Assembly (NCBI GenBank): GCA_036787775.1
Contig: DAIQOR010000003.1
Location: 9,466-73,465, forward strand
Source of the DNA: a bacterium
Lineage (GTDB): Archaea > Nanobdellota > Nanobdellia > Pacearchaeales > GW2011-AR1
Reading direction: 5' to 3'
DNA length: 64,000 bases
The notes under the pieces are model-generated. The model had not been told where the DNA came from, made no database searches, and was given only the letters and a program-made list of their open reading frames with translations. The position numbers and the translations under genes are program-made. Below are positions 2,883-55,102 of the stretch, piece by piece (positions within the stretch are counted from its first letter, which is position 1; each line of letters begins with the position of its first letter).

Positions 2883-4730
2883 ATGAGAACAATAATATTT
2901 TTAGTTTTTGGAATATTTATTTTAATTAGTTTGAATTTTGTCTTTGGTGCGAGTATTGAAGATGTTGGAAGTGTTGTTGATATGGATAAGGCGGAATTGC
3001 AAGGAGAGGGAGTTGATTATTCTATTCTTAACGAGGCTGAGACGAGAGAAAATGGTGCGGTGGTTTCGATTAAGATTGTTGATGAAGATGGAAGTTTTTG
3101 TGTTAGAGGAAATTGTTATGAAAATATTGATAAAAGTAAAACAAATTATTTTGATTTAGATGCTGAGGGAAATATTGTGAGTGCGAGTTTTGTGACAACT
3201 GGCGAAGGGAATTATACTCTTGGAGAAGATGAATATTTTTTGCCTAAGGGGACGAGTGTTGAATTTAGGGAAGGGAAGGCTGTTTTGAGTGGGGATGGTG
3301 ATTTTAAGATAAGAAAAGATGGATGCAAAGACCAATCAATATCATTTATAGAAAGGTTTCGGGAAGGAGATTTAATTATAGAGAATATGAAAGGTTGTGA
3401 AAGAAGACTTAAATCACGACAGATTATTTTTTTAATTAATAATGATTCATATTATTGTGGTTTTTGTGATGTTACCTTGGACGAATATGGAAGATTGCAA
3501 AAAATTGAAAAGGGAACTAGATTAGTTGGGGGCCCCCCTAAATTTTATAATTTTCGTCATGAATCTGTTAATCAAAACACCAATTTTTATTATAATTCAA
3601 ATTTTAATCCTGAAGAACATGAAAATGAAAATTATATAAATATTGATGGGAATAAATGGAGTATCGGCGGAGAAAATTTAAAGGTTGATTTTGGACCAAC
3701 ATCTAGTTTATTTTTAGGCATTGATGAGTCCTTTACTTTTTTTGAATTGACTGCTTCTGGGAAAACTAATATCTATGTTGATAATGGGAAGATTCGCGTG
3801 GACTCCTTTGGATATTCTGATTTAGAAACAGAAAATTTAAATGTTTTTACGTCTAATAATGGAAAAATCTTTAAGAAAATAATGAGTAATACCTATAATG
3901 AAGTTGGAGAAGATGTCTCTAAAGCAGATATGTTGATTACAACTTTTAATGAACATGAAAATATTGTTTCAACCATGAATGTCGATAAAGAAGGAAGTAT
4001 TTTTTCTGAAGAGGGGGATTTTTCTTTGTATTCTTCTCCGGCAACAGATACTATTGTGTCTCCTGATGAAAGATTGAATAAGTTTGAAGATAGAGATAAG
4101 GCAAGAGAGCAATTGAGGAATGAGGGGATAACTGATGAAAGGAGACAAGCTTATCTTCCAGAGGTGAGCGAATTTCTTTATAAACATATTAATGCCATTT
4201 GCGATTATGAAAATTATAATCTTGGGTTTGTAAATAATTTGGTTGGGGCTTTTGAAAATAATGAGGATCATTGTATTTCTTTTTGGGAAAGAAAAATCGC
4301 TAAAGGGGGGAGTTATGTTCCAGAAGATTTGTTACGAGCTTATATGGGATTGCCTCAAAAATATGGATCTCTTGGAGTTTCAGATTATCAACCTTCTATA
4401 AGTACCGAAAACAAATATTATTATAAGGTGAATAATTTTATTTCTGGGGAAAATATTAATTTTCTTTTAGAACGAATAAGTTTGGGGGAGGGTGATGAGA
4501 TAATTGAAAGAAAAAGCGGAGATTCAATTGTTTTTGGAGGAACTTTGGGAAAATATACTTTATCTCGGGGGAAAGATTCTTGTGGTTTTTATATTTCATA
4601 TTATGATATTTGGGATTTAGAACCGAATCTGTTGGAGGGTTTTGTTGGCAAGCCGTTTGAATTGTATGACCGAGTTTATTATGAACCTCTTACGTATGAA
4701 ATAATTGAAAATCCTTGTGGGAATGAATAG
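2883..4730 (+). CDS. large secreted protein, paralog 1 (signal peptide, unknown family)
   Basis: N-terminal signal peptide MRTIIFLVFGIFILISLNFVFGA; shares N- and C-terminal modules with 5509..7335; 615 aa. Confidence 0.6.
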   Translation: MRTIIFLVFGIFILISLNFVFGASIEDVGSVVDMDKAELQGEGVDYSILNEAETRENGAVVSIKIVDEDGSFCVRGNCYENIDKSKTNYFDLDAEGNIVSASFVTTGEGNYTLGEDEYFLPKGTSVEFREGKAVLSGDGDFKIRKDGCKDQSISFIERFREGDLIIENMKGCERRLKSRQIIFLINNDSYYCGFCDVTLDEYGRLQKIEKGTRLVGGPPKFYNFRHESVNQNTNFYYNSNFNPEEHENENYINIDGNKWSIGGENLKVDFGPTSSLFLGIDESFTFFELTASGKTNIYVDNGKIRVDSFGYSDLETENLNVFTSNNGKIFKKIMSNTYNEVGEDVSKADMLITTFNEHENIVSTMNVDKEGSIFSEEGDFSLYSSPATDTIVSPDERLNKFEDRDKAREQLRNEGITDERRQAYLPEVSEFLYKHINAICDYENYNLGFVNNLVGAFENNEDHCISFWERKIAKGGSYVPEDLLRAYMGLPQKYGSLGVSDYQPSISTENKYYYKVNNFISGENINFLLERISLGEGDEIIERKSGDSIVFGGTLGKYTLSRGKDSCGFYISYYDIWDLEPNLLEGFVGKPFELYDRVYYEPLTYEIIENPCGNE

Positions 4731-4777
4731 TTTAATTCTTAGAAAAGGTTTTTATATAAGAATTTGTTTAGTTAGTT

Positions 4778-5497
4778 ATGAAAAAAAGAGGACAGGTTAC
4801 TATTTTTATAATTGTGGCAATTGTGATAATTGTTGCGGGGGCGATAATTTTTTTTGTAAATCAAAAATCTAATTCTGCAATTAATTTGCAAGGTGATGAA
4901 GTTGGTTTGAGGGTTGAAAGTTGTTTGGAGAACTCTTTGGCTTTGGCGATTGTTTCTAATTCTCTTCAGGGAGGATATTTTGATTCCGAAGAATCTGGTT
5001 ATTATTTTGAGGATGGGAAATCTAATGTTCCTTCAAAAGAGGATTTGGAAAATAATTTATTGCTGGGCGTCGAGGGTATTTTCGGAAGTTGTTTGAATTT
5101 TTCTGATTTGCCTGGTGAGGTGAAATATGATTTGGAGAGAGCTATTTTTAAAATTGAAGGTGAAAATAATCTTATTAAAATTAATTTAAGATTGCCTATT
5201 ACTTTGAAGATGGATGATTCTTCTTTGGTGGTTGATGAGTTTAGTTCAGAGATTGAGACGGATTATTTTAATTTTTATAATGTTGCGGTTGAACTAACTC
5301 AGGAGCAGGAAAAACATGTTGATGAAATTTGTTTGAGTTGTGCGACGGATATTGCTGGACGAGAAAGAGTTTCAATTGTTTCTTTAGAAGGACAGAAAGA
5401 GGGAAATGATATTTTGATTTATACAATTTCAAAAGATAGAGAGGATGTTTTTAATCCATTGTTTATCTTTAAGCATAAATTTAAATTAGTGGAATAG
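4778..5497 (+). CDS. archaeal type IV pilin-like protein (class III signal peptide)
   Basis: MKKRGQ followed by a ~20-aa hydrophobic stretch VTIFIIVAIVIIVAGAIIFF, resembling a prepilin peptidase KG/Q cleavage site; 239 aa. Confidence 0.55.
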   Translation: MKKRGQVTIFIIVAIVIIVAGAIIFFVNQKSNSAINLQGDEVGLRVESCLENSLALAIVSNSLQGGYFDSEESGYYFEDGKSNVPSKEDLENNLLLGVEGIFGSCLNFSDLPGEVKYDLERAIFKIEGENNLIKINLRLPITLKMDDSSLVVDEFSSEIETDYFNFYNVAVELTQEQEKHVDEICLSCATDIAGRERVSIVSLEGQKEGNDILIYTISKDREDVFNPLFIFKHKFKLVE

Positions 5498-5508
5498 TTA
5501 ATAGGATT

Positions 5509-7335
5509 ATGAAATTTAGAGGATTATTTTTGTTTTTGTTTATTTTAATTAGTTTGAATTTTGTCTTTGGTGTGAGTATTGAAGATGTTGAAAGTTTGAT
5601 TGATCAGGAAAAAGCACAATTGCAAGGTCAAGGTATTGAATATATTATTTTTAACGAGGCTGAGACGAGAGAAAATGGTGCGGTGGTTTCGATTAAGATT
5701 GTTGATGAAGATGGAAGTTTTTGTGTTAGAGGAAATTGTTATGAAAATATTGATAAAAGTAAAACAAATTATTTTGATTTAGATGCTGAGGGAAATATTG
5801 TGAGTGCGAGTTTTGTGACAACTGGCGAAGGGAATTATACTCTTGGAGAAGATGAATATTTTTTGCCTAAGGGGACGAGTGTTGAATTTAGGGGAGGGAA
5901 GGTTGTTTTTGTTGGGAACGGAGATGTGGTAATAAACACAAAAGAAAATAAAAAATTTAATTTATTGTTGAATCCTGGTGTAAATGTTGAGGTGGAATTT
6001 TTGGAAAGGGGGAAAATGGTTTTTAGTGGAAGAGTGTTTACAATTAATGGATATTCTGGTGGTTCTTTGTCTTCAGAAGAACAAATTTCTATAATTTTTG
6101 ACAATCTTGGAAGAGTGTTGAGAGTTGAAGGAAAAGGTTTTATGCTTGGAGATGTAAGGGATTTTTCTTTAAATAATAAAGATTATTTGAATTTTTATTA
6201 TGGAGCAGATTTTAATATTTCAGCTCATAAAGATGAAAATTATTTTTATGAGGATTTGACAAGTGGGGTTTTGTATGCTGGAGGAGATTATTATTTGACT
6301 GAGCATTATGTTACCCGTTCGGGATTTAAGAGTATTTTTAGTTTAGTCCCGAATGGAAATGTTGAGATATCTAAGGGGAGGGGGTTAGCGAGAGTTTTAT
6401 GTGAGGGTTCTACAATTATTAATTCTGGTTATTTTAACACCTTGAGGATTTCTGAGGATGGGAAAATTTTTAAGAGATTTAATAGGGGATCTTTTTTTGG
6501 GAAATCTGAAGAAGAAATAAATCAAGAGGAGATTGATTTAGAGGTTGTAGTTAAATCTGGGGATGAATCTTCAAATTTAAACTATGATGGAACAAATAAT
6601 GTTTATTCTTCTGAGGGAGAGGATTTTTCTTTGTATTCTCTTCCAGCAAGAGACACTATTGAAGCGTCTGATGAGAGATTGAATAAATTTGAGGATAGAG
6701 AACGTGATAAACAATATTTTTTGGAACATGGAATAACTCCTGAATTAGAAAGAGGGTATGTTCCTAAAGTTAGTGAATGGTGGCAAGAAAATTTTAATCC
6801 TGCAGGAGATTATGTCTATGATTTAGCTACGCAGGATCCTATACAATTTATTAGAAATTTTAATGATAGGTTTAAAAGGGGGGCTACAGCATTTACTCAG
6901 GGAACTTCAACAGGAAGAGAAGATGCTTGGAGATTGTATTTGGGGATGCCCCAACAAGATAATACTTTTTCAATTTCAAAATATCAACCTTCGATAAGCT
7001 CGGAAAATAGATATTATTATAAAATAAATGAGTTTAGTGAGTTTGAAAATGTTCAACAAGTTTTATATAGAATCTCTCAAGGTGGAAAATCCAGAATTAA
7101 TGTAGACTCAGTTGTGATTCCAGATATGGGGGGGGCAGAGGGAGGAGTTGGTTTAAGAGACTATACACTTTCAAAAGGAAAAGATTCTTGTGGTTTTTAT
7201 ATTTCATATTATGATAAATGGGATCTGACTCCGAATAAGTTGGAAGGTTTTTTCGGAACACCTTTGGAAATTTATGATAGAATTTATTATGATCCAATTA
7301 CTTATGAGAAAATTGAAAATCCTTGCGGAAACTGA
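5509..7335 (+). CDS. large secreted protein, paralog 2
   Basis: Signal peptide; 243 nt (5651..5893) 100% identical to 3028..3270; C-terminal KDSCGFYISYYD..YDR.YY.P.TYE.IENPCGN shared with paralog 1; 608 aa. Confidence 0.6.
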   Translation: MKFRGLFLFLFILISLNFVFGVSIEDVESLIDQEKAQLQGQGIEYIIFNEAETRENGAVVSIKIVDEDGSFCVRGNCYENIDKSKTNYFDLDAEGNIVSASFVTTGEGNYTLGEDEYFLPKGTSVEFRGGKVVFVGNGDVVINTKENKKFNLLLNPGVNVEVEFLERGKMVFSGRVFTINGYSGGSLSSEEQISIIFDNLGRVLRVEGKGFMLGDVRDFSLNNKDYLNFYYGADFNISAHKDENYFYEDLTSGVLYAGGDYYLTEHYVTRSGFKSIFSLVPNGNVEISKGRGLARVLCEGSTIINSGYFNTLRISEDGKIFKRFNRGSFFGKSEEEINQEEIDLEVVVKSGDESSNLNYDGTNNVYSSEGEDFSLYSLPARDTIEASDERLNKFEDRERDKQYFLEHGITPELERGYVPKVSEWWQENFNPAGDYVYDLATQDPIQFIRNFNDRFKRGATAFTQGTSTGREDAWRLYLGMPQQDNTFSISKYQPSISSENRYYYKINEFSEFENVQQVLYRISQGGKSRINVDSVVIPDMGGAEGGVGLRDYTLSKGKDSCGFYISYYDKWDLTPNKLEGFFGTPLEIYDRIYYDPITYEKIENPCGN

Positions 7336-7481
7336 TTAATTTTTTTGTTTTATCGTCGGGAAATTTATTTTTTCGTATTAATAACCTTAGTGCACAAACC
7401 GCAGGTGGCCTGAAAGAAATTAGTTGGAAAAAATAGGGAAATAGAAAGATTTTAAATAAGATTATTTCTTGGTTTAATTAT

Positions 7482-7556
7482 GCCTCGGTAGCTCAGCCTG
7501 GATAGAGCACTAGCCTTCTAAGCTAGGGGTCGCAGGTTCAAATCCTGTTCGGGGCA
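7482..7556 (+). tRNA. tRNA-Arg (anticodon TCT)
   Basis: Acceptor gcctcgg/tcggggc (two G-U), anticodon stem ctagc/gctag with loop cttctaa, T-arm gcagg-ttcaaat-cctgt; 75 nt. Confidence 0.75.
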
Positions 7557-7558
7557 TT

Positions 7559-7631
7559 GCGCGGGTGGCACAGCGGCTACTGCGCTTCCCTGCAGAGGAA
7601 GTTTCCGTGGGTTCGAGTCCCACCCCGCGCT
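7559..7631 (+). tRNA. tRNA-Cys (anticodon GCA)
   Basis: Acceptor gcgcggg/cccgcgc perfect, anticodon stem cttcc/ggaag with loop ctgcaga, T-arm gtggg-ttcgagt-cccac; lies 2 nt after tRNA-Arg. Confidence 0.7.
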
Positions 7632-7652
7632 TAATTTACGAGAACCCGGTTC

Positions 7653-7749
7653 GACGAGCAACTCTGAAATTTCGAATAAATGAGCAACGAAAATAAAAAG
7701 CGAATTTAAAGAATATTTCACGGGTTGGGAGCACCATCCCCGCGCTTAA
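7653..7749 (+). repeat. tRNA-associated element fragment (second-half module) plus degenerate direct repeat of the tRNA-Cys 3' end
   Basis: 7653..7734 is ~80% identical to the reverse complement of 54318..54399; 7738..7749 ccccgcgcttaa repeats 7623..7634; the preceding ~20 nt mimic the Cys T-arm. Confidence 0.7.
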
Positions 7750-7783
7750 AAAATTTTAAATAGTTCTTTTTGTAGAGAATAAT

Positions 7784-9451
7784 ATGGCTTATGTGGTCAA
7801 ACAAAATGTTAATGGTGGCGATTACTATTATCTTCGGAAAAGTGTGCGTGAGGGCGGTAAGGTGGTGAGTAAGAGCATTGCATATCTTGGGAAGACAAAA
7901 ACCGAAGCAGATAAAAAGGCAAAAGAGATAATTAAGAACATGGGTAATTTAGATGTTGCAAAAAGTGAGAGTAAGGCGGTGAAAAAGTTAGTCTGTGAAC
8001 CGACGAATATTTCTATCGAGGAGTTGGCAAATTTTTGTAAATCGAAAGGATTTGTTTTTAGAAGTTCAGATATTTATGGGGGGCTTTCAGGTTTTTGGGA
8101 TTTTGGTCCGTTGGGAGTTGAGTTGTTTAAAAATTTAAAAGATGATTGGTGGAATCATTTTGTTTATCAAAATACAAATATGGTTGGAATGGAAGCGAGC
8201 ATTATTTCTCATCCAAGGACGTGGAAGGCTTCTGGGCACATAGAAAATTTTAATGATTTGGCTGTTGTTTGTAAGAAATGTAAAAAGGGAACTAAGATTG
8301 ATGTTTCTGAAGAAGGAAAAGTTAAATGTGAATGCGGGGGCGAGTTTGAAGTTAAAGGGAAATTTAGTTTAATGTTTAAAACAAATGTTGGAGCATTGAA
8401 TTCGGAAGTTGCTTATCTCCGAGGAGAAACCGCGCAAGGAATGTTTATGAATTTTAAATTGATTCATCAAACTTCGAGAATGCAATTACCTTTTGGTGTT
8501 GCCCAAATTGGAAGATGTTTTAGAAATGAGATTGCTCCGAGGGATTTTTTATTTAGATGTAGAGAATTTCATATTGGAGAGTTTGAATTTTTTATTCATC
8601 CTGAAGAGAAAAAATGTGAATTGCTCGACGATAAACATCTTAAAGTGAAATTTAGAATTTTGGATGCAGAGACGCAGGTTGCTGGAAAAGATGGTTTGAA
8701 AGAAGTTGCTATGAAAGAACTTGTTGCAAAAAATAAACTTGATGAGTGGCATGCTTATTGGTTGGCTGAACAAATTTTTTGGTTTAGAAGTTTAGGTTTG
8801 GATAAAATAAAAATTCGAGAGCACACAAAAGAGGAATTGAGCCATTATAGTTCTGCGACTTTTGATATTGATTATGAATATCCGTTTGGAAGTAAAGAGG
8901 TTGCGGGAAATGCAAATCGGGGACAATATGATTTGATGCAACATCAAAAAGAAAGTAAACAAAGTATGGAAGTTTTTGATGAGAAAACTAAACAGAAGGT
9001 TTTACCGAGGGTGATTGAGCCAACTTTTGGAATGGAAAGAGTTTTTTTGGCTATTTTAACTAATGCTTATTGTGATGATAAATCTCGAGGAAATATTGTT
9101 TTGAGAATTCCTGCGAAGCTTGCGCCTATTAAAGTTGCAGTTTTTCCTTTGATTAAACAAAAAGAATTTGAAGATTTAGCGAAAGGAGTTTCAAAAAACT
9201 TAGGAGAAGAGTTTAATGTTTGTTATGATAAGTCTGGTTCAGTTGGTAGACGATACGCGCGTAATGATGAAATTGGAACTCCATTTTGTGTAACCATCGA
9301 CGGTGATTCAGTAAAAAATAATGATGTTACAATTAGAGATAGAGATACAACAAAACAAATTCGTGTAAAAATTTCTGATTTGAAAGAAATTTTAAGAAAA
9401 TTAATTAATTCTGAGATTGAATTTGAAAAAGCAGGAAAATTAATAAATTAA
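7784..9451 (+). CDS. glyS: glycyl-tRNA synthetase (archaeal/eukaryotic alpha2 type) with ~50-75-aa N-terminal extension
   Basis: SDIYGGLSGFWDFGPLG and class II motifs; the first ~52 aa (GGDYYYLRK..GGKV..YLGK) are not part of canonical GlyRS; 555 aa. Confidence 0.85.
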   Translation: MAYVVKQNVNGGDYYYLRKSVREGGKVVSKSIAYLGKTKTEADKKAKEIIKNMGNLDVAKSESKAVKKLVCEPTNISIEELANFCKSKGFVFRSSDIYGGLSGFWDFGPLGVELFKNLKDDWWNHFVYQNTNMVGMEASIISHPRTWKASGHIENFNDLAVVCKKCKKGTKIDVSEEGKVKCECGGEFEVKGKFSLMFKTNVGALNSEVAYLRGETAQGMFMNFKLIHQTSRMQLPFGVAQIGRCFRNEIAPRDFLFRCREFHIGEFEFFIHPEEKKCELLDDKHLKVKFRILDAETQVAGKDGLKEVAMKELVAKNKLDEWHAYWLAEQIFWFRSLGLDKIKIREHTKEELSHYSSATFDIDYEYPFGSKEVAGNANRGQYDLMQHQKESKQSMEVFDEKTKQKVLPRVIEPTFGMERVFLAILTNAYCDDKSRGNIVLRIPAKLAPIKVAVFPLIKQKEFEDLAKGVSKNLGEEFNVCYDKSGSVGRRYARNDEIGTPFCVTIDGDSVKNNDVTIRDRDTTKQIRVKISDLKEILRKLINSEIEFEKAGKLIN

Positions 9452-10091: not shown

Positions 10092-10461
10092 TTTTGTTTT
10101 TTATTTTTAAAATTATTGCTGAAGAAAAAATTATTCCTATAAAATCTGTTAGAACATCTGTGATTGTTGAGCTTCTCATTGGCACGAAACTTTGATGAAT
10201 CTCGTCGCTGATTGCGTAAATTAATGAAAAGAAAATTGTTACGATTAAAACTTTGTAGGAAAATTTTTGTTTGGTTTGTAATGAGTAAAATAGAAAAAAG
10301 TTGAACAGGAAAAATACTGCGAAGTGGTAGATTATTGGGATGAATGTAATTCCGCCGGATTGATTTGTCCCTGGCAGACTTGAAAAGAAAAATATTTCTA
10401 TACCAATTAAAAGTGTTAGGATGATTGAGAGGGATTTGTTTTTTGAAAGTGTTTTTATCAT
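9985..10461 (-). CDS. VanZ-like family membrane protein
   Basis: SDEIHQSFVPMRSSTITDVLTDFIG matches the VanZ-like signature; multiple TM helices; the 3' end overlaps the HIT gene convergently by 107 nt. Confidence 0.6.
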   Translation of the reverse strand: MIKTLSKNKSLSIILTLLIGIEIFFFSSLPGTNQSGGITFIPIIYHFAVFFLFNFFLFYSLQTKQKFSYKVLIVTIFFSLIYAISDEIHQSFVPMRSSTITDVLTDFIGIIFSSAIILKIKNKINKPAELSPPSSSAKYENARVQPPAPHSQNYCSQY

Positions 10462-10523
10462 TTGAGAATATTTATTTTTAGATTTAAAAGAATTGTTGTG
10501 TTTGAGTGTTTTCTCCGGTCGAG

Positions 10524-10555
10524 AAAAAATAAATGGCTCTGAAGAGAATTTAACT
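10524..10555. repeat. direct repeat copy of the tRNA-Met 3' end plus flank (32-nt exact copy of 10638..10669)
   Basis: aaaaaataaatggctctgaagagaatttaact occurs at 10524..10555 and 10638..10669. Confidence 0.85.
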
Positions 10556-10647
10556 ACAACTCAATCATTGAAAAGTTGTCATTAATATTTTATTTTGCAC
10601 TTTCCAATAATTTCGCGACCTCTGTCGGTCTCGAGTTAAAAAATAAA

Positions 10648-10719
10648 TGGCTCTGAAGAGAATTTAACTCTCGACCTCTGCCTCATGAGAGCAGCGCTCT
10701 AACACTGAGCTACAGAGCC
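10648..10719 (-). tRNA. tRNA-Met (anticodon CAT), elongator type (G1-C72)
   Basis: Reverse complement folds: acceptor ggctctg/cagagcc, anticodon stem ctgct/ggcag with loop ctcatga, T-arm gagag-ttaaatt-ctctt (unusual T-loop lacking C56); 72 nt. Confidence 0.7.
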
Positions 10720-17082: not shown

Positions 17083-18831
17083 TTATTCTAAAATAGCTTT
17101 AATTCTTCTAACACCAGAACTGCTTGATTCTTCTTTTTGTATTTTGAATTTTCCTAATTCACAAGTGTTTTTTACATGAGGTCCCGCACAAATTTCTTTT
17201 GAGAAATCACCGACGCTGTAAACGGAAACTATTTCTCCGTATTTATGTCCGAACGCGCCCAAAGCTCCTTGCTTTTTTGCTTCTTCTGGCGACATTTCTT
17301 CTCTAATTACCTCACAAGAAGATTGTATTTTTGCGTTAACTAAATCTTCAATTTCTTGAATTTCATCATTAGTTAATTTTCTGTCAAAATTGAAATCTAA
17401 TCTCAATCTTTCTGGAGTTATGTTCGAACCTTTTTGCATTATGTTTTCATCTTTCAAGACAACTCTTAGTGATTCTAAAAGTAAATGTGCTGTGGTGTGT
17501 AATTTTGTTGTTGCTTCGGAATTGTCTGCGAGTCCGGATTTGAATCGTCCAACCGATGCTGTTCGAGAGAGTTCTTGATGTTTATCGAAGTGTGCCTTGC
17601 ATTCTTTCTCTGGAAATTTCATTCCAGCCTTTTCAACTTCTTCTTTAATCATTTCAACTGGGAATCCGTAACTTTGATATAATAAGAAAGCGTCTTCACC
17701 GCATAAATCTTTTTTTGAGTCGAGTAATTTTTGAAGTTTTTTTATTCCTTGTTCTAAAGTTGATTCAAATTGTTTTTCTTCTTTTTTTATTTCTTCAAGA
17801 ATTTGTTTTTTGTTTTGTTCAAGATGTTCATAATCATCGTAGATTTTGAAAACTGGTTCCGCTATTTTTGAAATTGATTCGGAGATTCCTAAATCTTTTT
17901 TGTATTTTATTGCTCGTCGTAAAAGTCTTCTTAAAACATAACCTTGTTCCGAATTTCCTGGTGAAATCCCGTCGGCAATTATAAAAACTGAAGCTTTAAT
18001 GTGGTCGGCAATTATTCGCATTGCTTTTTCATTTCCTTTGTAATTTTTTTTAGAAAGTTTTTCTATTTCGTAAATTATTGGTTTGAATGTGTCTCCGAGG
18101 TAATTATCTTCTAATCCGTTTAGAATTGTGGTCGTTCTTTCAGTTCCCATTCCAGTGTCGACGTTTTTTTGTTTTGCGATTTCATATATTTCTTTTTCGT
18201 TTTTATTATACTGCATTAAAACATCGTTCCAAATTTCTACCCAATTTTTATTTTCGGGGTCAAAAATTTTTGGTGCTGGAATATTATTTAATTTCCAATA
18301 AAACATTTCTGTGTCTGGACCACAAGGTCCTGTTTTTCCGGCTGGTCCCCACCAATTGTCTTTTTTTGGGAGGAAAGCAATTCTTTCTTTTTTTATTCCT
18401 AATGATTTCCAAATCTCTGCTGCTTCTTCATCTTTGGGTGCGTCTTTGTCGCCTTTGAAACAAGTTACGGCAAATCTTTCTAAAGGAATTTTCAAAACTT
18501 TTGTTAGGAATTCAAATGAAAATTCAATTGCTTCTTTTTTGAAATAATCTCCGACGGACCAGTTTCCTAACATTTCGAAAAATGTGTGGTGGTATGTGTC
18601 TCCGACTTCTTCAATGTCACCGGTTCGAATGCATTTTTGAACATTTACTAATCTTTTTCCGAGGGGATGTGGTTGTCCCATTAAGTAAGGAACTAATGGG
18701 TGCATTCCTGCTGTTGTGAATAAAACTGTTGGGTCATTTTCTGGAATTAAACTTGAATTTGGAACTTCCCTGTGTTTTTTTGATTTGAAAAATTCAATGT
18801 ATTTTTTTATTAGTTCTTTTCGAGTTATCAT
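17083..18831 (-). CDS. alaS: alanyl-tRNA synthetase, short form (catalytic plus editing, no C-Ala domain)
   Basis: ENDPTVLFTTAGM class II AlaRS N-terminus; HTTAHLL editing-domain His motif; only 582 aa. Confidence 0.8.
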   Translation of the reverse strand: MITRKELIKKYIEFFKSKKHREVPNSSLIPENDPTVLFTTAGMHPLVPYLMGQPHPLGKRLVNVQKCIRTGDIEEVGDTYHHTFFEMLGNWSVGDYFKKEAIEFSFEFLTKVLKIPLERFAVTCFKGDKDAPKDEEAAEIWKSLGIKKERIAFLPKKDNWWGPAGKTGPCGPDTEMFYWKLNNIPAPKIFDPENKNWVEIWNDVLMQYNKNEKEIYEIAKQKNVDTGMGTERTTTILNGLEDNYLGDTFKPIIYEIEKLSKKNYKGNEKAMRIIADHIKASVFIIADGISPGNSEQGYVLRRLLRRAIKYKKDLGISESISKIAEPVFKIYDDYEHLEQNKKQILEEIKKEEKQFESTLEQGIKKLQKLLDSKKDLCGEDAFLLYQSYGFPVEMIKEEVEKAGMKFPEKECKAHFDKHQELSRTASVGRFKSGLADNSEATTKLHTTAHLLLESLRVVLKDENIMQKGSNITPERLRLDFNFDRKLTNDEIQEIEDLVNAKIQSSCEVIREEMSPEEAKKQGALGAFGHKYGEIVSVYSVGDFSKEICAGPHVKNTCELGKFKIQKEESSSSGVRRIKAILE

Positions 18832-18871
18832 GTTAAGTTATAAGAATTAGAGTTTTAAAATATTTGTGCAA

Positions 18872-19216
18872 TTATCTATCTAATGCTCTCAATCTATTTT
18901 GAATTTCTTTTAATTGGTATTCTAAATTGTCATCTTTTCTCGTTGTTGTTTTAATTTTTTCTTCTCTTTTTTTGATTGAAGGTATTTCTATTTCTGGAAG
19001 TATTTTTTGAAGTTTGTTTATGTTTGTTACAACTTCTTGCATTTTTTTATGAATTTTTAATTTGAGTTTTAATTCTTCCGTTCTTAATGTTCGGTATTGT
19101 TTTATTATTTGTGCAAGCTTTAATAGAGCTTGTTGAGAATATAACATATCTTTTTTTGATTCTACAGCCTCGCTAAATTCAAGTTTTATATGAATTAAAT
19201 TATTTTCTCCTTTCAT
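18872..19216 (-). CDS. hypothetical coiled-coil protein
   Basis: 114 aa, heptad-rich; 4-nt overlap with the upstream gene. Confidence 0.4.
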   Translation of the reverse strand: MKGENNLIHIKLEFSEAVESKKDMLYSQQALLKLAQIIKQYRTLRTEELKLKLKIHKKMQEVVTNINKLQKILPEIEIPSIKKREEKIKTTTRKDDNLEYQLKEIQNRLRALDR

Positions 19217-19836
19217 TCTACTTTAGAAAAAATGTCTTGGTTGACTTTTTCAATTTGATTTTTTATTAATTGTATTTCGTTTTCCCAAGCTTCAAGTTCT
19301 TTTTCTTCCCCTTCTTTTATTCTTTTTGTTTCTCCAAGTAAAGTTTCTATGTCTTTTATTTTTTCTTTAGTTTTTTCAAAAAGGTGAAGGCTTTCTTCAA
19401 ATTTATCAATTCTTATAAAAATTGGTTCGGCTTTTCTAATTCTGGAAGTGCCTGTTCTAAATTCTGAAGGGATTTCAATTTTTCTTTTTTCTGTTTGCAT
19501 TTTTATCGGAGTTTCTAAAGGCATCATTTGATTTTCTTCTTCGTCATCCAAATCAAATTCATCTGCCTCGAAATCTCCATCACCTTTTTCTCCTCCAGAA
19601 ACTGCCTCTTTTATAGCATTCTGTGAAAATCTATTTCCAAGTTCGCTCATCGGGAAACTCGGTAATTGTTGTAATTGATCTCTTTGAAAAGGCATTTGCG
19701 AATTTTGATTTTCTAGTGAAGGTAATTGTGGGAGAGAAATATTTCTTTGGGATTGCTGAGGCAACTCAGGTAATCTTGAAAGACTTGGAAGTTTTGGTAT
19801 GCCTTCCTCTTTTTTATTTTTGTTGAACCATCCCAT
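19213..19836 (-). CDS. hypothetical protein, Q/P-rich N-terminus, acidic patch, C-terminal coiled coil
   Basis: Start taken at MGWFNKNK; co-oriented and overlapping 18872..19216. Confidence 0.4.
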   Translation of the reverse strand: MGWFNKNKKEEGIPKLPSLSRLPELPQQSQRNISLPQLPSLENQNSQMPFQRDQLQQLPSFPMSELGNRFSQNAIKEAVSGGEKGDGDFEADEFDLDDEEENQMMPLETPIKMQTEKRKIEIPSEFRTGTSRIRKAEPIFIRIDKFEESLHLFEKTKEKIKDIETLLGETKRIKEGEEKELEAWENEIQLIKNQIEKVNQDIFSKVE

Positions 19837-30502: not shown

Positions 30503-31347
30503 ATCAGCGTCTGATTTAAAGCTCCTTGAGAAATTTCATTAACTATATTTTCTATGTATTTTGATTCAAGTGCGAAACCTAAACTTTCTCCTCCGCCGAT
30601 TTTGAAATTGTTAATTCCTATGACTTCTCCTTGTTTGTTGATTAAAGGTCCGCCCGAGTTTCCGGGGTTTAGTGCGGCGTCGGTTTGGATGTATGCATTT
30701 ATTCCGTTTGCTCCTGGTCTGTTAATTGCTGAAACTATTCCTTCGGAGACTGAGAATTGTAATCCTAATGGGTTTCCTATTGCGATTACTTTTTCCCCGA
30801 TTTGTAATTCGTCGGAGTTTCCTATTTCTATTGATTGCACGCTTTTGTCTATTTTTAATAATGCGATGTCGTAGTCCGCGTTGTATCCTATGAATTTTGC
30901 GGGGAGGTTTTCTTGTTCGTATGTTATTGCAGTTATTGTTTTTCCTCCGACGAGAACGTGGGCGTTTGTTACGATGTATCCGTCGTCGGTGATTATGAAT
31001 CCTGTGCCTTGTCCGACGTCGGTTCTTATTGTAACGACGGATTTTATTGCGTCTTCAATTATTCCTGAGAAATCTGCACTTGTTGATGCTTTTAGTTCGT
31101 CGAATTCTTGGCCGATTGTTCCGAGTTTTGAGCCGAGGTTTTTGAGTTCAGTGTTTGCTTGTATGAGACTTGAAGATATTTCGGTTATTTTATTTTGGGA
31201 GTCGATTATTTCTGTGCTTAATTTGTCGTAGTTCATTTGTTGGTTTACGAATAATCCGTACATAAATATTGAACTTAAAATCATGAAAACTATTACAATT
31301 GTTGTGAAACTTCCAATCATGTATTTGTGTTTTCTTTCTAATACCAT
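30499..31347 (-). CDS. trypsin-like serine protease (HtrA/DegP family, no PDZ domain), membrane-anchored
   Basis: TNAHV (His), DIALLKI (Asp), TDAALNPGNSGGPL (Ser) catalytic triad motifs; N-terminal TM. Confidence 0.8.
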   Translation of the reverse strand: MVLERKHKYMIGSFTTIVIVFMILSSIFMYGLFVNQQMNYDKLSTEIIDSQNKITEISSSLIQANTELKNLGSKLGTIGQEFDELKASTSADFSGIIEDAIKSVVTIRTDVGQGTGFIITDDGYIVTNAHVLVGGKTITAITYEQENLPAKFIGYNADYDIALLKIDKSVQSIEIGNSDELQIGEKVIAIGNPLGLQFSVSEGIVSAINRPGANGINAYIQTDAALNPGNSGGPLINKQGEVIGINNFKIGGGESLGFALESKYIENIVNEISQGALNQTLI

Positions 31348-31407
31348 CTTTCTTTTAAATGAGTAAAACTCAAATTATATAAATCTAACTTTTTTAGTAA
31401 AGTGATT

Positions 31408-31479
31408 GGGCCTATAGTTCAGTGGATAGAATAACAGGTTTCGGCCCTGTTGACCGAGGTTCGAATCCTCGTAGGCTCA
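31408..31479 (+). tRNA. tRNA-Arg (anticodon TCG)
   Basis: Acceptor gggccta/taggctc, anticodon stem acagg/cctgt with loop tttcggc, T-arm cgagg-ttcgaat-cctcg; 72 nt. Confidence 0.7.
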
Positions 31480-31496
31480 TTTGAATTTGAACCGGT

Positions 31497-31574
31497 GGTT
31501 TCGTTTTACCACGCTTGGGAGAACGAGCGAGCGACTTGTTCGCGACGCCGAATCCTCGTAGGCTCATTTGAATT
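31497..31574 (+). repeat. tRNA-associated element core (53 nt) plus 25-nt direct repeat of the tRNA-Arg 3' end
   Basis: 31497..31549 is 51/53 identical to the reverse complement of 54400..54452; 31550..31574 is an exact copy of 31463..31487. Confidence 0.85.
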
Positions 31575-31681
31575 TTTTAAAAATAAATTCACAAATAACT
31601 TTTTATACTGGTTTGTTTTTATTTTGTTATGAAAGAAGTAAATCAAATATTTTCATACTTTCATTTTAGGGGGAATTTAAA

Positions 31682-32812: not shown

Positions 32813-32857
32813 GAAGAAATAGCAATTTTTATTAAGACTAAAAATTATCTTTATTGT

Positions 32858-33127
32858 ATGTCTAAGAAAATTATTAAATTAAGGACAACTGGAAAATATC
32901 CTTGTCAATATGACGATTTAATTGATGAAAATAATTTAACTCGAGCAACGTTTTATACTTTGGAAGAAATTAAGAAAGATTTGTCTTCTTCGAAAGAAGG
33001 GATTACAAAAGGAACAGATGGAGTTTATGATATTGTTCTTGAATTAGAAGAACTGACTATTAAGGATGTTAGAAAAGCATTGGAAATGTTGGGGAAATTT
33101 TGTAATTTTGAATTTGTTTTAATTTAA
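32858..33127 (+). CDS. hypothetical protein
   Basis: 89 aa, no motif. Confidence 0.3.
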   Translation: MSKKIIKLRTTGKYPCQYDDLIDENNLTRATFYTLEEIKKDLSSSKEGITKGTDGVYDIVLELEELTIKDVRKALEMLGKFCNFEFVLI

Positions 33128-33379
33128 AATAGATTGTCTCGCCTTCGGCGAGGATGATTGAAAATTTTTCCTGACTTTGTCGAGGAAAATTTTTTTGGGA
33201 AGGAATTATTAATGAACTGGCTATCGCCGAAAATCGTTTGAGAAACTATTGGAGATTAGATTGTGAGATATGTTTTTGAGAATAGAAAAGTTTAATGATT
33301 TTAGAAATTCTCCTACAAATCCATTTCAAAAATAAAAGTAAATTTTTCTCTCATCTTTTTTCTAAAAAGAAGATTTTAT

Positions 33380-33688
33380 CTAATAAATTTTAAATAATGA
33401 ATCTAATTTTTTTATTATAAAACTAAAACATCCTCCAAAGCAAAGAGAAAGTATTACTCCAAAAATCGCAGAAAGAAGTGGAGATAAATTGAGAGCTTTA
33501 ATGCAAAATAAAGAAATTAAAATAAAAGAAGCCAGGCATAAAATAACTTTTAAAATTAATTCTGCTGGAGTTTGTGGATATATGTTTACAATAGTTCCTT
33601 TGGGAAAATTATGTAAATCTATATTCCCTCCACATCCGCAAGAATTTTTTAAATTAACCATCTTAAAATTATTTAGTTTTGACACCAA
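33380..33688 (-). CDS. small membrane protein with N-terminal CGCGG motif
   Basis: 102 aa; 16-nt overlap with the upstream Cys-rich gene. Confidence 0.35.
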   Translation of the reverse strand: MVSKLNNFKMVNLKNSCGCGGNIDLHNFPKGTIVNIYPQTPAELILKVILCLASFILISLFCIKALNLSPLLSAIFGVILSLCFGGCFSFIIKKLDSLFKIY

Positions 33689-34164
33689 GCAATTTCTCCT
33701 GCATTACAACTATAAGAGCTACTTCCTGTAAAGATAGCATAAAGTCCTTTGGTATGGCAAGTTGCAACTTCTCCAGTATTACAAGTAGTATATGGTTCAT
33801 CTTCGTCTACACAGATAGAATATTGGTCTGAAGAGCAATAAGAAATTTGTTGGTTTTGATTTACACAAGTTGCTTGTTCATTTTTTAGAGCATTGCATTT
33901 TACGACACTATCTGTTTTTGTATCATAAATCATAGCATATTCATTTGAGTTATAACAAGTATAACTTTGCCCTTTCTCGCAATAGAAACCTTGACTTCCT
34001 TCTGGGACAAATTGATAATTATTATACATATCAGATAAACTTGAACTTTGTTCTTTAATTATTTGAGACATACCAAAAAGAATTAAAACTGATAACACTG
34101 CCCAAACCATTAAAATTATTTTCCAAACATCTTTTTTCTTGTGAGTTGTATGTGGTTCAACCAT
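33673..34164 (-). CDS. membrane-anchored Cys/Tyr/Ser/Thr-rich extracellular protein
   Basis: N-terminal TM anchor; 12 Cys in 163 aa. Confidence 0.4.
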   Translation of the reverse strand: MVEPHTTHKKKDVWKIILMVWAVLSVLILFGMSQIIKEQSSSLSDMYNNYQFVPEGSQGFYCEKGQSYTCYNSNEYAMIYDTKTDSVVKCNALKNEQATCVNQNQQISYCSSDQYSICVDEDEPYTTCNTGEVATCHTKGLYAIFTGSSSYSCNAGEIAWCQN

Positions 34165-34273
34165 TCTATTAACAAAAAGAACTTCTTTATAAATCTTACT
34201 ATGTATTTACAATACATTACCAATAGATAACCAAAAGAGGTTTTATAGTTAATCTGTTTCGTATAGATTAACT

Positions 34274-34441
34274 ATGGTTAGTAAATATACAAATGTTGCA
34301 TTGCCAGAAGAACTAATTCAAGAAATTGATTTGGTTGTTAAGAAAAGTGGTTTGGGCTACACTTCACGAGGAGAAATTGTGAAAGAAGCTGTGCGAAGAT
34401 TTTTGAAAGAACTAGCAGAATACAAGCAAATTAAAAAATAA
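34274..34441 (+). CDS. ribbon-helix-helix (CopG/Arc/MetJ-like) DNA-binding protein, 55 aa
   Basis: MVSKYTNVALPEELIQEIDLVVKKSGLGYTSRGEIVKEAVRRFLKE: beta-strand then two helices typical of RHH; absent from the ORF track (<60 aa). Confidence 0.5.
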   Translation: MVSKYTNVALPEELIQEIDLVVKKSGLGYTSRGEIVKEAVRRFLKELAEYKQIKK

Positions 34442-34623
34442 AAATAAAATTTACTTGTTTTTCTTAGAAGAAAAATTTTTATCTTTTTTATAAATAAAAC
34501 TTTTTTGGCAAGGCTGACAAAATATCTGAAGAATTTGGAACTTCTATATTAATGAAAAATTTGGGCGAATCCAAGCAACAGACTTTTAACGAACTTTGAT
34601 AAATTAAACAAATTAATTAACAA

Positions 34624-36451: not shown

Positions 36452-36537
36452 CTTCGTTGGAAGAAGTCTCGAGTACGGACGTACCCCAAGGAGGGGCGAG
36501 AACCTGCAAGCAGGCACTTCGTAACCTTCCGCCTCGT
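36452..36537 (+). ncRNA. candidate structured ncRNA (GC-rich multi-hairpin island); strand not determined
   Basis: Local GC well above surroundings; nested helices GGAAGAAGT/ACTT..CTTCC, CTCG/CGAG, GTAC-GGAC-GTAC, CCCC-aagga-GGGG. Confidence 0.35.
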
Positions 36538-53845: not shown

Positions 53846-54259
53846 TTATGCCGCGAAATTCTGTCTGAGATAATCATCTCTTGCCATGAATCTTTGGGAT
53901 AATTCATTACAAATTTTTACTAAATATTCTAATTTTTCTTCGGGGAGTTTGGGGGTATGAACTGAATTTAATTCTTGATAGAGAAGTTTGGCTTGAACTT
54001 TTGCATTATTCCAATCTCTGTATTCTTCCATTTTAGAAGGATTTTCTTTAGCGTCTTTTTCAATTAATTCTATATACATATCAGTTATTATTGAACTTAT
54101 TCCTTCTGTCATAAAATTTATTGAATTCTTATTTTTATATTCTCTTCGAATTAATTTTTTTAATTTTTTTAGTTGTGCAAAACCATTTCCCCTACCTAAT
54201 TTATAGTTATCTATTTCAGTTCCTGCAGAACACGCAATTTCAGCTAATTCTAAACTCAT
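53846..54259 (-). CDS. hypothetical protein
   Basis: 137 aa, alpha-helical, no motif. Confidence 0.35.
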   Translation of the reverse strand: MSLELAEIACSAGTEIDNYKLGRGNGFAQLKKLKKLIRREYKNKNSINFMTEGISSIITDMYIELIEKDAKENPSKMEEYRDWNNAKVQAKLLYQELNSVHTPKLPEEKLEYLVKICNELSQRFMARDDYLRQNFAA

Positions 54260-54303: not shown

Positions 54304-54452
54304 AACGTCCCGAGAAGTGCTCTCAATCCGTGAAATGTTCTTTAAATTCGCTTGTTAAATTTTCTCGCTCTTTTATTAGAAATTTCAGAATTGCTCGTCG
54401 GCGTCGCGAACAAGTCGCTCGCTCGCTCTCCCAAGTGTGGTAAAACGAAACC
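54304..54452. repeat. tRNA-associated element (repeat of the tRNA-Asn 3' end, second-half module, 53-nt core); near-complete copy
   Basis: 54304..54317 repeats 54477..54490; 54318..54399 is ~80% identical to the reverse complement of 7653..7734; 54400..54452 is 51/53 identical to the reverse complement of 31497..31549. Confidence 0.85.
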
Positions 54453-54478
54453 TAAGGTTCTCGTCCTATTTTTAAAAA

Positions 54479-54551
54479 CGTCCCGAGAAGGACTCGAACC
54501 TTCGACCTAACGGTTAACAGCCGTTCGCTCTACCGACTGAGCTATCGGGAC
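54479..54551 (-). tRNA. tRNA-Asn (anticodon GTT)
   Basis: Reverse complement: acceptor gtcccga/tcgggac, anticodon stem aacgg/ccgtt with loop ctgttaa, T-arm gaagg-ttcgagt-ccttc. Confidence 0.75.
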
Positions 54552-54601
54552 ATGAAAATCTTACAGCAAATTTCCTTTTAAAGTTTATCTTTTCGGGACG
54601 T

Positions 54602-55102
54602 TTACTCTCTTAATCCTAAATCTTCTATAGGAGGGGTTTTGTTCCTTTCAGCACGAGAATATACATTTGTTTGTTTTGAGCCTTGCACGATTTCTATTAT
54701 CGCGTCTTGCGCGTTTTTTATTAGTTCGGGGTTTCCGATTATTCCGACTTTGTTTTCATTTATTTCTAAATTGCATCCAGTTAAGTTTGAGATTGTTTTC
54801 AAGGTTTTTCCTTCTTTTCCAATTATTCTTCCTCGGATTCTTTCGTAGTTTTGTTTTGTGGTGTAATCTTTTACGTTAAGTATTTCGAATTCTTTTTCTT
54901 CTTTTTTTATTGAAACTGCGTAGGAGAATGGGAATCCGAAGTTTATTGCGTCGATGACTTTTTCTGCGATGTATTCATCTTCGGGCGAGCCTTCTATGTT
55001 TACTTCTTTTCCTCGGTTTGTTATTTTGATGTTCAAAATTTTTTCGAGTTTTTTCTTGTTCTTTATAATTCTTGGGAGTTTTTCAGATATTATTGTTCTC
55101 AT
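54602..55102 (-). CDS. KH-domain RNA-binding protein (Dim2/Pno1-like)
   Basis: Two KH GxxG loops (IIGKEGKTLK; IIGNPELIKNA). Confidence 0.65.
   Translation of the reverse strand: MRTIISEKLPRIIKNKKKLEKILNIKITNRGKEVNIEGSPEDEYIAEKVIDAINFGFPFSYAVSIKKEEKEFEILNVKDYTTKQNYERIRGRIIGKEGKTLKTISNLTGCNLEINENKVGIIGNPELIKNAQDAIIEIVQGSKQTNVYSRAERNKTPPIEDLGLRE

Follow-up and report, generated by a model that had tools for sequence, protein, structure and literature searches.

Miniature non-coding inserts between tRNA genes and copies of their 3′ ends in a pacearchaeal genome

Four of the six tRNA genes in the DNA segment analyzed here (64,000 nt from a Pacearchaeota (DPANN) genome, hereafter the window) are followed by a short non-coding insert, behind which an exact copy of the tRNA's own 3′ end appears. 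This layout was found at tRNA-Arg(TCG), tRNA-Asn, tRNA-Cys and tRNA-Met. The copied 3′ end, with or without trailer nucleotides, measures 12–32 nt (X in this text; X1 within the tRNA gene, X2 behind the insert), and the inserts measure 60–160 nt. If tRNA-Ile and tRNA-Val, which lie on the same contig outside the window, are counted as well, at least four of eight examined tRNA genes of this genome have an insert with X behind them. The inserts are composed of shared modules, termed L, A′ and B. With moderate confidence, we lean towards att-type site-specific recombination at the T arm of the tRNA as the process that left these miniature elements behind.

The window has a GC content of 33% and codes for an archaeal-type ProRS, GatB/GatD/GatE-type amidotransferase subunits, TFB, TBP, MCM and a KRR1-type KH protein. 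On the + strand, the GC skew is very strong (+0.35 to +0.5) over most of positions 2001–52000 and close to 0 where the genes turn to the − strand. The positions of all tRNA genes with inserts, their repeats and the modules are collected in Table 1.

Table 1. Coordinates of tRNA genes, 3′-end repeats and insert modules in the window
Feature	Position	Strand	Remarks
tRNA-Arg(TCG)	31407–31480 (ends 31407/8 and 31479/80 by tool)	+	Intact, intronless; ARAGORN; Rfam RF00005, 66.4 bits
X1(Arg)	31462–31488	+	Copy 1 of the 27-nt repeat: final 19 nt of the tRNA, from the T loop, and 8 nt of trailer
L at Arg	31489–31502	+	Small hairpin gaacc-ggt-ggtttc; 13 nt identical in the sister species (L012)
A′ at Arg	31503–31548	+	GC-rich, two small hairpins; remainder of the 53-mer 31497–31549
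X2(Arg)	31549–31575	+	Orphan tRNA 3′ end and trailer, then a T6 run; second copy of the 27-nt repeat
tRNA-Asn(GTT)	54478–54552	−	ARAGORN, Rfam
X1(Asn)	54477–54490	−	CTTCTCGGGACGTT, last 13 nt of the tRNA and 1 nt of trailer; exact repeat
L at Asn	54447–54466	−	ggacgagaacc-tta-ggtttc
A′ at Asn	54400–54446	−	53-mer copies 51/53; missing from the orthologous sister-species insert (L074)
B at Asn	54318–54399	−	Long imperfect hairpin; invariant AGCGAATTTAAAGAA (archaeal promoter-like) 22 nt before X2
X2(Asn)	54304–54317	−	Orphan tRNA-Asn 3′ end CTTCTCGGGACGTT
X″(Asn)	54589–54602	+	Inverted third copy, 13/14; abuts the stop codon of the KH-domain gene; edge of the block inverted relative to the sister species
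tRNA-Cys(GCA)	7559–7631	+	ARAGORN
X1(Cys)	7623–7634	+	CCCCGCGCTTAA; exact repeat
Insert at Cys	7638–7737	+	L 7638–7652 (acgagaacccggttc) and B 7653–7737; no A′
X2(Cys)	7738–7749	+	Orphan tRNA-Cys 3′ end CCCCGCGCTTAA
tRNA-Met(CAT)	10648–10719	−	ARAGORN
X1(Met)	10638–10669	−	32 nt including 10 nt of trailer; exact repeat
Insert at Met	10556–10637	−	Diverged L (ctcgagacc..ggtc hairpin) and B-like 14-bp hairpin ending ttcaatgattgag
X2(Met)	10524–10555	−	Orphan tRNA-Met 3′ end and trailer

Repeats and modular inserts at the tRNA genes

An exact repeat of the tRNA-Arg(TCG) 3′ end had been described in an earlier note on this DNA. The 25-mer gaatcctcgtaggctcatttgaatt indeed occurs exactly twice (31463–31487 and 31550–31574), with none expected from 100 shuffles, and one further matching base on each side extends it to 27 nt (31462–31488 and 31549–31575). 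The two copies enclose an insert of 60 nt. This insert probably is co-transcribed with the tRNA, since the sole T6 terminator-like run at the locus follows X2.

The same note had pointed out a 53-mer at 31497–31549 (+) that resembles 54400–54452 (−). We could confirm this match, which has two mismatches (51/53) and would not be expected by chance in shuffled sequences. At both tRNA-Arg and tRNA-Asn, the 53-mer follows the tRNA when read in the direction of that tRNA, and the similarity around it extends to 63 nt at 92% (31489–31551 versus 54398–54460). The idea that it forms the conserved core of an element did not survive, however: it consists of the last 6 nt of L (the 3′ strand of the L hairpin) and A′, and has no flanking repeats of its own. 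The "conserved core" is a shuffled module, and the main interest lies in the wider pattern of modular footprints at tRNA ends.

The repeat and the insert at tRNA-Arg are no assembly artefact, because eight other contigs from separate samples carry the identical region (8 of 11 same-species contigs compared, from JGI, ENA and NCBI samples). No empty-site polymorphism was seen at this locus among the same-species contigs compared. Some deviations in the neighborhood deserve mention. A same-species metagenome contig (L011, 840–900, about 31400–31430 of the window) is missing about 30 nt from the 5′ end of tRNA-Arg. Exactly at this gap, identity to the window rises abruptly from 91.5% to 99.5%; the contig either is a chimeric assembly or has a recombination boundary there, at the tRNA. 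In the NCBI MAG GCA_018304115.1 (L006, positions 7677/7678 and 8420), 42 nt and 87 nt are absent relative to window positions 30511–30552 and 31296–31382. The 87-nt gap, which immediately precedes the promoter region of tRNA-Arg, deletes the beginning of the protease gene; that its length equals the period of the Arg repeat may be a coincidence or an assembly effect. Downstream of the permease, there is a strain-level variable island, where L004 11136–13998 replaces window positions 32817–34619; it codes for a ParE toxin with a DUF7557 partner, LemA, NUDIX and small ORFs.

At tRNA-Asn, tRNA-Cys and tRNA-Met, X measures 14 nt (with a further inverted copy), 12 nt and 32 nt, and the inserts between the X copies measure 159 nt, 103 nt and 82 nt, respectively. 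The flanks of tRNA-Leu in the window contain no repeat of its 3′ end, and none was found for tRNA-Arg(TCT) in the window or for tRNA-Ile. A GC-rich insert lies behind tRNA-Val, where the sequence ends before the possible position of a repeat. A single nucleotide separates tRNA-Arg(TCT) from tRNA-Cys (7481–7631), so that presumably both are on one transcript. Directly upstream of this pair, a tandem duplication of about 2.6 kb (2883–7335) comprises two paralogous ORFs of about 610 aa without a Pfam match, and its repeated stretches share 77–91% nucleotide identity.

Alignment of the inserts showed their organization into modules. L forms a short hairpin with (a)CGAGAACC…GGTT(T)C, A′ comprises 47 nt (gttttacc…gcgacgcc), and B is a long imperfect hairpin of about 82 nt, whose 3′ arm carries the invariant AGCGAATTTAAAGAA approximately 22 nt before X2. 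The insert at tRNA-Arg consists of L and A′, that at tRNA-Asn of L, A′ and B, that at tRNA-Cys of L and B, and that at tRNA-Met of a diverged L and B. The boundaries of A′ and B are identical wherever these modules are present, and B at tRNA-Cys is 87% identical to B at tRNA-Asn. The hairpins accommodate G·U pairs, and there is one compensatory change (T-A/C-G) in B. The folding energies do not stand out (z = −1.1 for A, −0.2 to −0.6 for B). As a general motif, the palindrome GAACC-N-GGTTC is not clearly enriched (10 occurrences versus 5.6 expected).

Module L is a short form of a GC-rich two-hairpin motif (CGAGAACC) that also occurs elsewhere. This motif has the form [NNCC-aagra-GGNN]-(c)CGAGAA-[CCTN-loop-NAGG]. 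Both its stems show compensatory changes, which were read by eye from the alignment, the hairpins not being recovered by MAFFT/RNAalifold. We found it at positions 36483–36527 of the window and in related contigs at L034 16778–16823, L012 15062–15142, L012 8991–9036, L043 about 7720–7790 and L063 19381–19426 (−). It lies in intergenic DNA or inside a 2H-phosphoesterase-like ORF, and in two species it forms an in-frame insertion of 81/69 nt in gatD, which is absent from gatD of the window and of L014.

Related genomes and a sister species

For comparison, 53 loci from Pacearchaeota and related DPANN archaea were gathered from a genome contig collection via the neighboring permease; in most of them, tRNA-Arg(TCG) lies upstream of the permease gene. 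Together with the six window tRNAs, 48 tRNAs from these loci were screened. Within 500 nt downstream, 12 of the 54 tRNAs have an exact copy of at least 11 nt of their 3′ end, versus a single case in the upstream control with the same query. A BLAST screen returned 14 downstream copies at 11 tRNAs in seven genomes, and all 14 start at tRNA position 51–63 and reach the last tRNA nucleotide. On the left, the copies begin in the T arm or where the 3′ acceptor strand starts; their right edge is not fixed. X often takes in 7–15 nt of non-tRNA trailer that are the same in both copies (8–9 nt at tRNA-Arg, 10 nt at tRNA-Met, 12 nt in L060, 15 nt in L063), and the duplication length ranges from 12 to 34 nt across all cases.

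The relatives with downstream copies include L028 (tRNA-Arg), L060 (tRNA-Arg, two extra copies), L062 (tRNA-Ile) and L063 (tRNA-Gln). Tandem inserts of another family were found behind tRNA-Glu, tRNA-Gln and tRNA-Thr of L050. This second family (8420–8700 on the − strand and 10408–10650 on the + strand) is made of P/Q units of about 115 nt, in which P is an 11-bp hairpin whose stem shows compensatory changes between copies around a conserved loop (cgttagttagtcacgaa). At three tRNAs (L050 Glu, L060 Arg and L063 Gln) there are tandem arrays of the type X-Y-X-Y-X, as expected of repeated integration. In the L050 Glu array, both orphan ends read GAGTTT in the T loop/stem, versus GAATCT in the tRNA; such a shared variant is expected if the left part of the orphans derives from the attP of the element.

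Behind tRNA-Gln of L063 there are three orphan ends, the last of them behind an insert of 960 nt (18400–19340, −), the longest insert in any locus. It is distal to two mini-inserts and contains an ORF of 247 aa without a Pfam match; the direct repeat on either side of it measures 22 nt, with 7 nt from the end of tRNA-Gln and 15 nt of trailer. When whole loci were scanned with words of at least 13 nt, no distant orphan ends, the expected marks of full-size integrated elements, appeared beyond this insert. Most orthologues of tRNA-Arg(TCG) have no insert, empty sites being common among these loci, and many carry a canonical intron of 21–136 nt at position 37/38 instead.

A sister species of the window genome (contigs L012/L013 and L074/L075), in which the flanking proteins are 70–83% identical and four-fold degenerate sites 56% identical, allowed us to compare two of the inserts directly. 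L is conserved at 13/13 positions at tRNA-Arg and at 15/16 at tRNA-Asn, B is 72% identical with an invariant AGCGAATTTAAAGAA, and X2(Arg) matches at 22/24 positions. At the Arg locus, L012 (8941–9112) contains an older, decayed copy of tRNA-Arg and, behind it, an intact tRNA-Arg whose acceptor pair is changed. The former lies under the conserved host promoter and consists of a 5′ half, a 74-nt insert with the two-hairpin motif and a degenerate T arm; the pair looks like a tRNA gene replacement. Behind the intact tRNA follow L, a diverged counterpart of A′ in the same place (sharing gaaccggtggttt, cgagc(a)gagcga and cgacg-c) and an orphan end with the acceptor sequence of the window type.

At tRNA-Asn, L074 has L, B and X without A′. 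The block made of promoter, tRNA-Asn, L, B and X is inverted between the two species (window 54304–54602, L074 10501–10728), and its flanks, the KH gene and a nitroreductase gene, have kept their orientation in both. Directly after the KH stop codon, a reverse-complement copy of X is present in the window (X″) as well as in L074. The tRNA-Asn genes of the two species differ solely by a compensatory pair in the acceptor stem (C-G versus T-A), and the X2 of each species, as well as X″ of the window, carries the variant of its own species. An extra ORF of 137 aa (53846–54259) is present in the window and absent in L074.

From this comparison we infer that A′ probably belongs to the Arg insert and that the Asn copy is a recent secondary transfer into an older L+B insert, because A′ is missing at tRNA-Asn of L074, a diverged counterpart is present at tRNA-Arg of L012, and the two 53-mer copies are 96% identical. 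The A′ junctions at tRNA-Asn are marked by the short homologies ggtt(t)c and cgacg. No A′ or 53-mer was found outside this species in viral and metagenome contig scans or in related loci.

Proposed recombination at the T arm and its alternatives

The repeats, the modules and where they occur, the inversion and the co-variation are direct observations, from which we infer an att-type recombination and the kind of enzyme behind it. DNA bearing a copy of the 3′ part of a tRNA would recombine with the tRNA gene, which would rebuild an intact tRNA (with X1) and leave an orphan 3′ end (X2) past the insert. The remnant, or possibly the moving unit itself, would be a non-coding miniature element of 60–160 nt composed of L, A′ and B. 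These modules may represent recombination arms beside the att core, and the recombinase would be supplied in trans. The X copies would still be recombinationally active, having mediated the inversion of the Asn block and having been kept matched in sequence to the tRNA. A′, native to the tRNA-Arg insert, would have been copied into the Asn insert at the ggtt(t)c and cgacg homologies.

Several observations argue for this model. Every repeat begins in the T arm or at the beginning of the 3′ acceptor strand and continues through the tRNA end, as an identity block of the T-loop class would, and the tRNA upstream of each insert is intact (ARAGORN and full-length Rfam matches at the four loci). Homologous inserts occur at different tRNAs, each with the X of that tRNA, and many orthologous tRNA-Arg(TCG) loci are empty sites. 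Furthermore, the Asn block is inverted with an X copy at the KH-stop breakpoint in both genomes, and the X copies co-vary with the acceptor pair of tRNA-Asn. A tandem duplication can be rejected, since the insert is foreign to the empty sites and common to different tRNAs.

Other points count against the att model. We searched for an integrase or another recombinase among the neighboring genes of the four sites, the further window ORFs that were scanned or Pfam-annotated, about 18 kb of additional contig and L050, and none was found; the genes flanking the insert sites are housekeeping genes or have no Pfam match. Likewise, no Phage_integrase match appeared among the scanned ORFs of the window, L050 and L063 or in precomputed Pfam lists, and neither the ORF of the long L063 insert, an L012 ORF beside an orphan end nor the scanned window and L050 ORFs resemble a recombinase in Pfam. 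The inserts are tiny and non-coding, and even the longest one contains only an ORF without a Pfam match. A single element family at several tRNAs would need repeated switching of the att site, and a circle of 87–180 bp is an implausible recombination substrate, which implies that the elements were once larger or that the mechanism is different. Independent decay of large elements, in turn, would not give identical module boundaries across the inserts.

Free, viral or plasmid copies of the modules were also missing from the collections searched. Exact scans of viral contigs with module A, module B and a 25-nt palindrome of L012/L050 gave no match, and two viral matches to the two-hairpin motif lay in high-GC coding sequence and were judged to be chance. 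A scan of the genome contig collection for module B gave nothing, a scan of metagenome contigs for module A gave a single contig of the same species, and a blastn query of phage and plasmid collections with the Asn insert gave no match. The earlier note had implied that the duplication is the att-like trace of an integrative element, and this stands in part. The block from T arm to 3′ end, the inversion and the co-variation agree with it; a larger element, an integrase or a virus or plasmid copy could not be found in the window, the additional 18 kb of contig, the 53 related loci or the viral, phage, plasmid, genome and metagenome collections. Nor was an intact copy of the 53-mer found in this material at the end of a larger element or plasmid with an integrase.

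The identical trailer of 8–15 nt in the X copies is explained more simply by a target-site duplication than by a tRNA-like attP. The inserts could accordingly be MITE-like non-autonomous transposons that target tRNA 3′ ends with staggered cuts, a reading that we consider doubtful. It would account for X1 and X2 being exactly equal even in the non-tRNA trailer, and for one insert family occurring at different tRNAs, each with its own X. Tiny, non-coding, palindrome-rich inserts would suit it as well, as would the long inverted repeat of B, which resembles a TIR, and the related CGAGAACC two-hairpin motif in ORFs and intergenic DNA of several genomes. However, the duplications have no fixed length (12 to 34 nt), and only their right edge varies in position, the left one always lying in the T arm or where the 3′ acceptor strand begins; we know of no prokaryotic transposase that gives such long and variable duplications at a fixed structure. 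Whole inserts lack terminal inverted repeats, the hairpin of B being internal, and the two-hairpin copies within ORFs are not flanked by a duplication. A MITE-like origin is also at odds with the differences from the tRNA that both L050 Glu orphans share and with the position of an X copy at the inversion breakpoint, and no transposase was seen in the ORFs examined.

Whatever their origin, the inserts may be functional parts of the tRNA loci that serve in 3′-trailer processing or termination, as co-transcribed small RNAs or, in the case of B, as an outward promoter for the next gene. This appears improbable to us, and it would leave the duplication of the tRNA end unexplained. It is true that conservation exceeds that of neutral sites in L, in part of B and in X2(Arg), that the hairpins tolerate G·U pairs with one compensatory change in B, and that the Arg insert, with the sole T6 run only behind X2, probably is co-transcribed with the tRNA. 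Yet the positions of terminator and promoter vary by locus, most related genomes have no insert at the same tRNA, A′ was found in this species only, and the folding energies are unremarkable. A search of the window against Rfam 15 returned only the six tRNAs above the gathering score and nothing overlapping the inserts even at E ≤ 5, and we rejected a curated RNA family for lack of a covariance-model match. The 53-mer thus is not part of a widespread housekeeping RNA, the outcome that the earlier note had named as evidence against its proposal: it has no Rfam match and was found in this species alone.

It is very improbable that the insert and one X form a non-canonical T-arm tRNA intron with a bulge-helix-bulge (BHB) structure or that X2 is the 3′ piece of a split tRNA: DPANN archaea are rich in introns, with those of 21–136 nt at 37/38 of tRNA-Arg(TCG) orthologues as examples, a splicing endonuclease gene lies in the window, and B is promoter-like about 22 nt before X2, but an intact contiguous tRNA precedes every insert, X holds trailer bases outside the tRNA, and X2 spans just 51–63 to the end, too short for a half gene, which would start at about position 38, with a leader complementary to the trailer of a 5′ half and no intact gene present. 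A register-by-register BHB scan that recovered the true intron of L014 gave no consistent motif at Arg, Asn and Cys, and the formal BHB of tRNA-Met at 59/60 (H=4, h=5, h′=2) arises only from its self-complementary T loop TTAA.

Coming back to att-type recombination, a more far-reaching and rather speculative version of it is that Pacearchaeota carry an undescribed class of gene-less recombination cassettes of about 60–180 nt that target tRNA 3′ ends and are self-contained units, not decayed proviruses. Such cassettes would insert at the T arm of many tRNAs, rebuild the tRNA end, stack, swap modules, flip tRNA genes and persist over speciation. Their persistence could possibly be due to a service of the orphan ends or of L/B to the host, for example as decoy att sites, trailer-processing signals or promoters.

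Significance and comparison with known systems

tRNA genes are classic landing sites of integrating viruses and plasmids, and tRNA-gene rearrangement in streamlined archaeal genomes has been discussed for split and intron-bearing tRNAs. To our knowledge, the mobile DNA of DPANN archaea has hardly been described, and the lineage studied here has no described viruses or plasmids. Here, at least four of eight tRNA genes carry miniature modular footprints, which are conserved between species and in one case tied to an inverted tRNA gene. If the inserts are autonomous units on which a trans-acting recombinase works, no smaller mobile elements that target tRNAs would be known, and the inserts would offer a handle on tRNA fragments, replacement and inversion in streamlined archaeal genomes. 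If they are mere scars, tRNA-targeted integration would still have been frequent in a lineage without described viruses or plasmids.

CIMEs of streptococcal ICEs are bacterial elements of several kilobases that are flanked by attL and attR, lack their own recombination genes and depend on an integrase in trans. The att flanks and the trans-acting integrase are features that the pacearchaeal inserts would share; the inserts, however, are only about 100 nt long, modular and palindromic. Short GC-rich hairpin modules in varied order are also known from the RPEs of Rickettsia, the BIMEs of E. coli and pneumococcal BOX elements, which are not tied to a duplication of tRNA 3′ ends. The modular hairpins, and the in-frame occurrence of the two-hairpin motif CGAGAACC in gatD, are reminiscent of these repeats, whereas the tRNA-end duplication sets the inserts apart. 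Casposons encode Cas1, are bounded by terminal inverted repeats and duplicate a nearly constant 14–15 bp of their target. The possible targeting of a tRNA 3′ end, the duplicated target and the repeat-insert-repeat arrays recall casposons and the duplication of CRISPR repeats. We nevertheless rejected a casposon, since the inserts have neither an ORF (or Cas1 gene) nor terminal inverted repeats and their duplication length is variable.

Two further parallels concern mobile elements at tRNA genes. Mycobacteriophage Ms6 uses a tyrosine integrase and a 26-nt attP/attB core at the T loop of a tRNA (PMC1762012). With such T-loop att elements the inserts share the intact tRNA at one junction, the orphan 3′ end at the other and the tandem arrays. 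They differ in being non-coding, 60–160 nt long and without an integrase, in being homologous at four tRNAs, in a repeat that often reaches 8–15 nt past the tRNA, and in their persistence across a species split. In Caldiarchaeum subterraneum, a 5′ fragment of tRNA-Thr lies beside a 1.8-kb insertion that encodes a recombinase (PMC3293823). Here the fragments are 3′ ends and the inserts are tiny and gene-less, but in both cases an archaeal tRNA gene was partially duplicated by inserted DNA, for which the decayed tRNA-Arg of the sister species may be compared.
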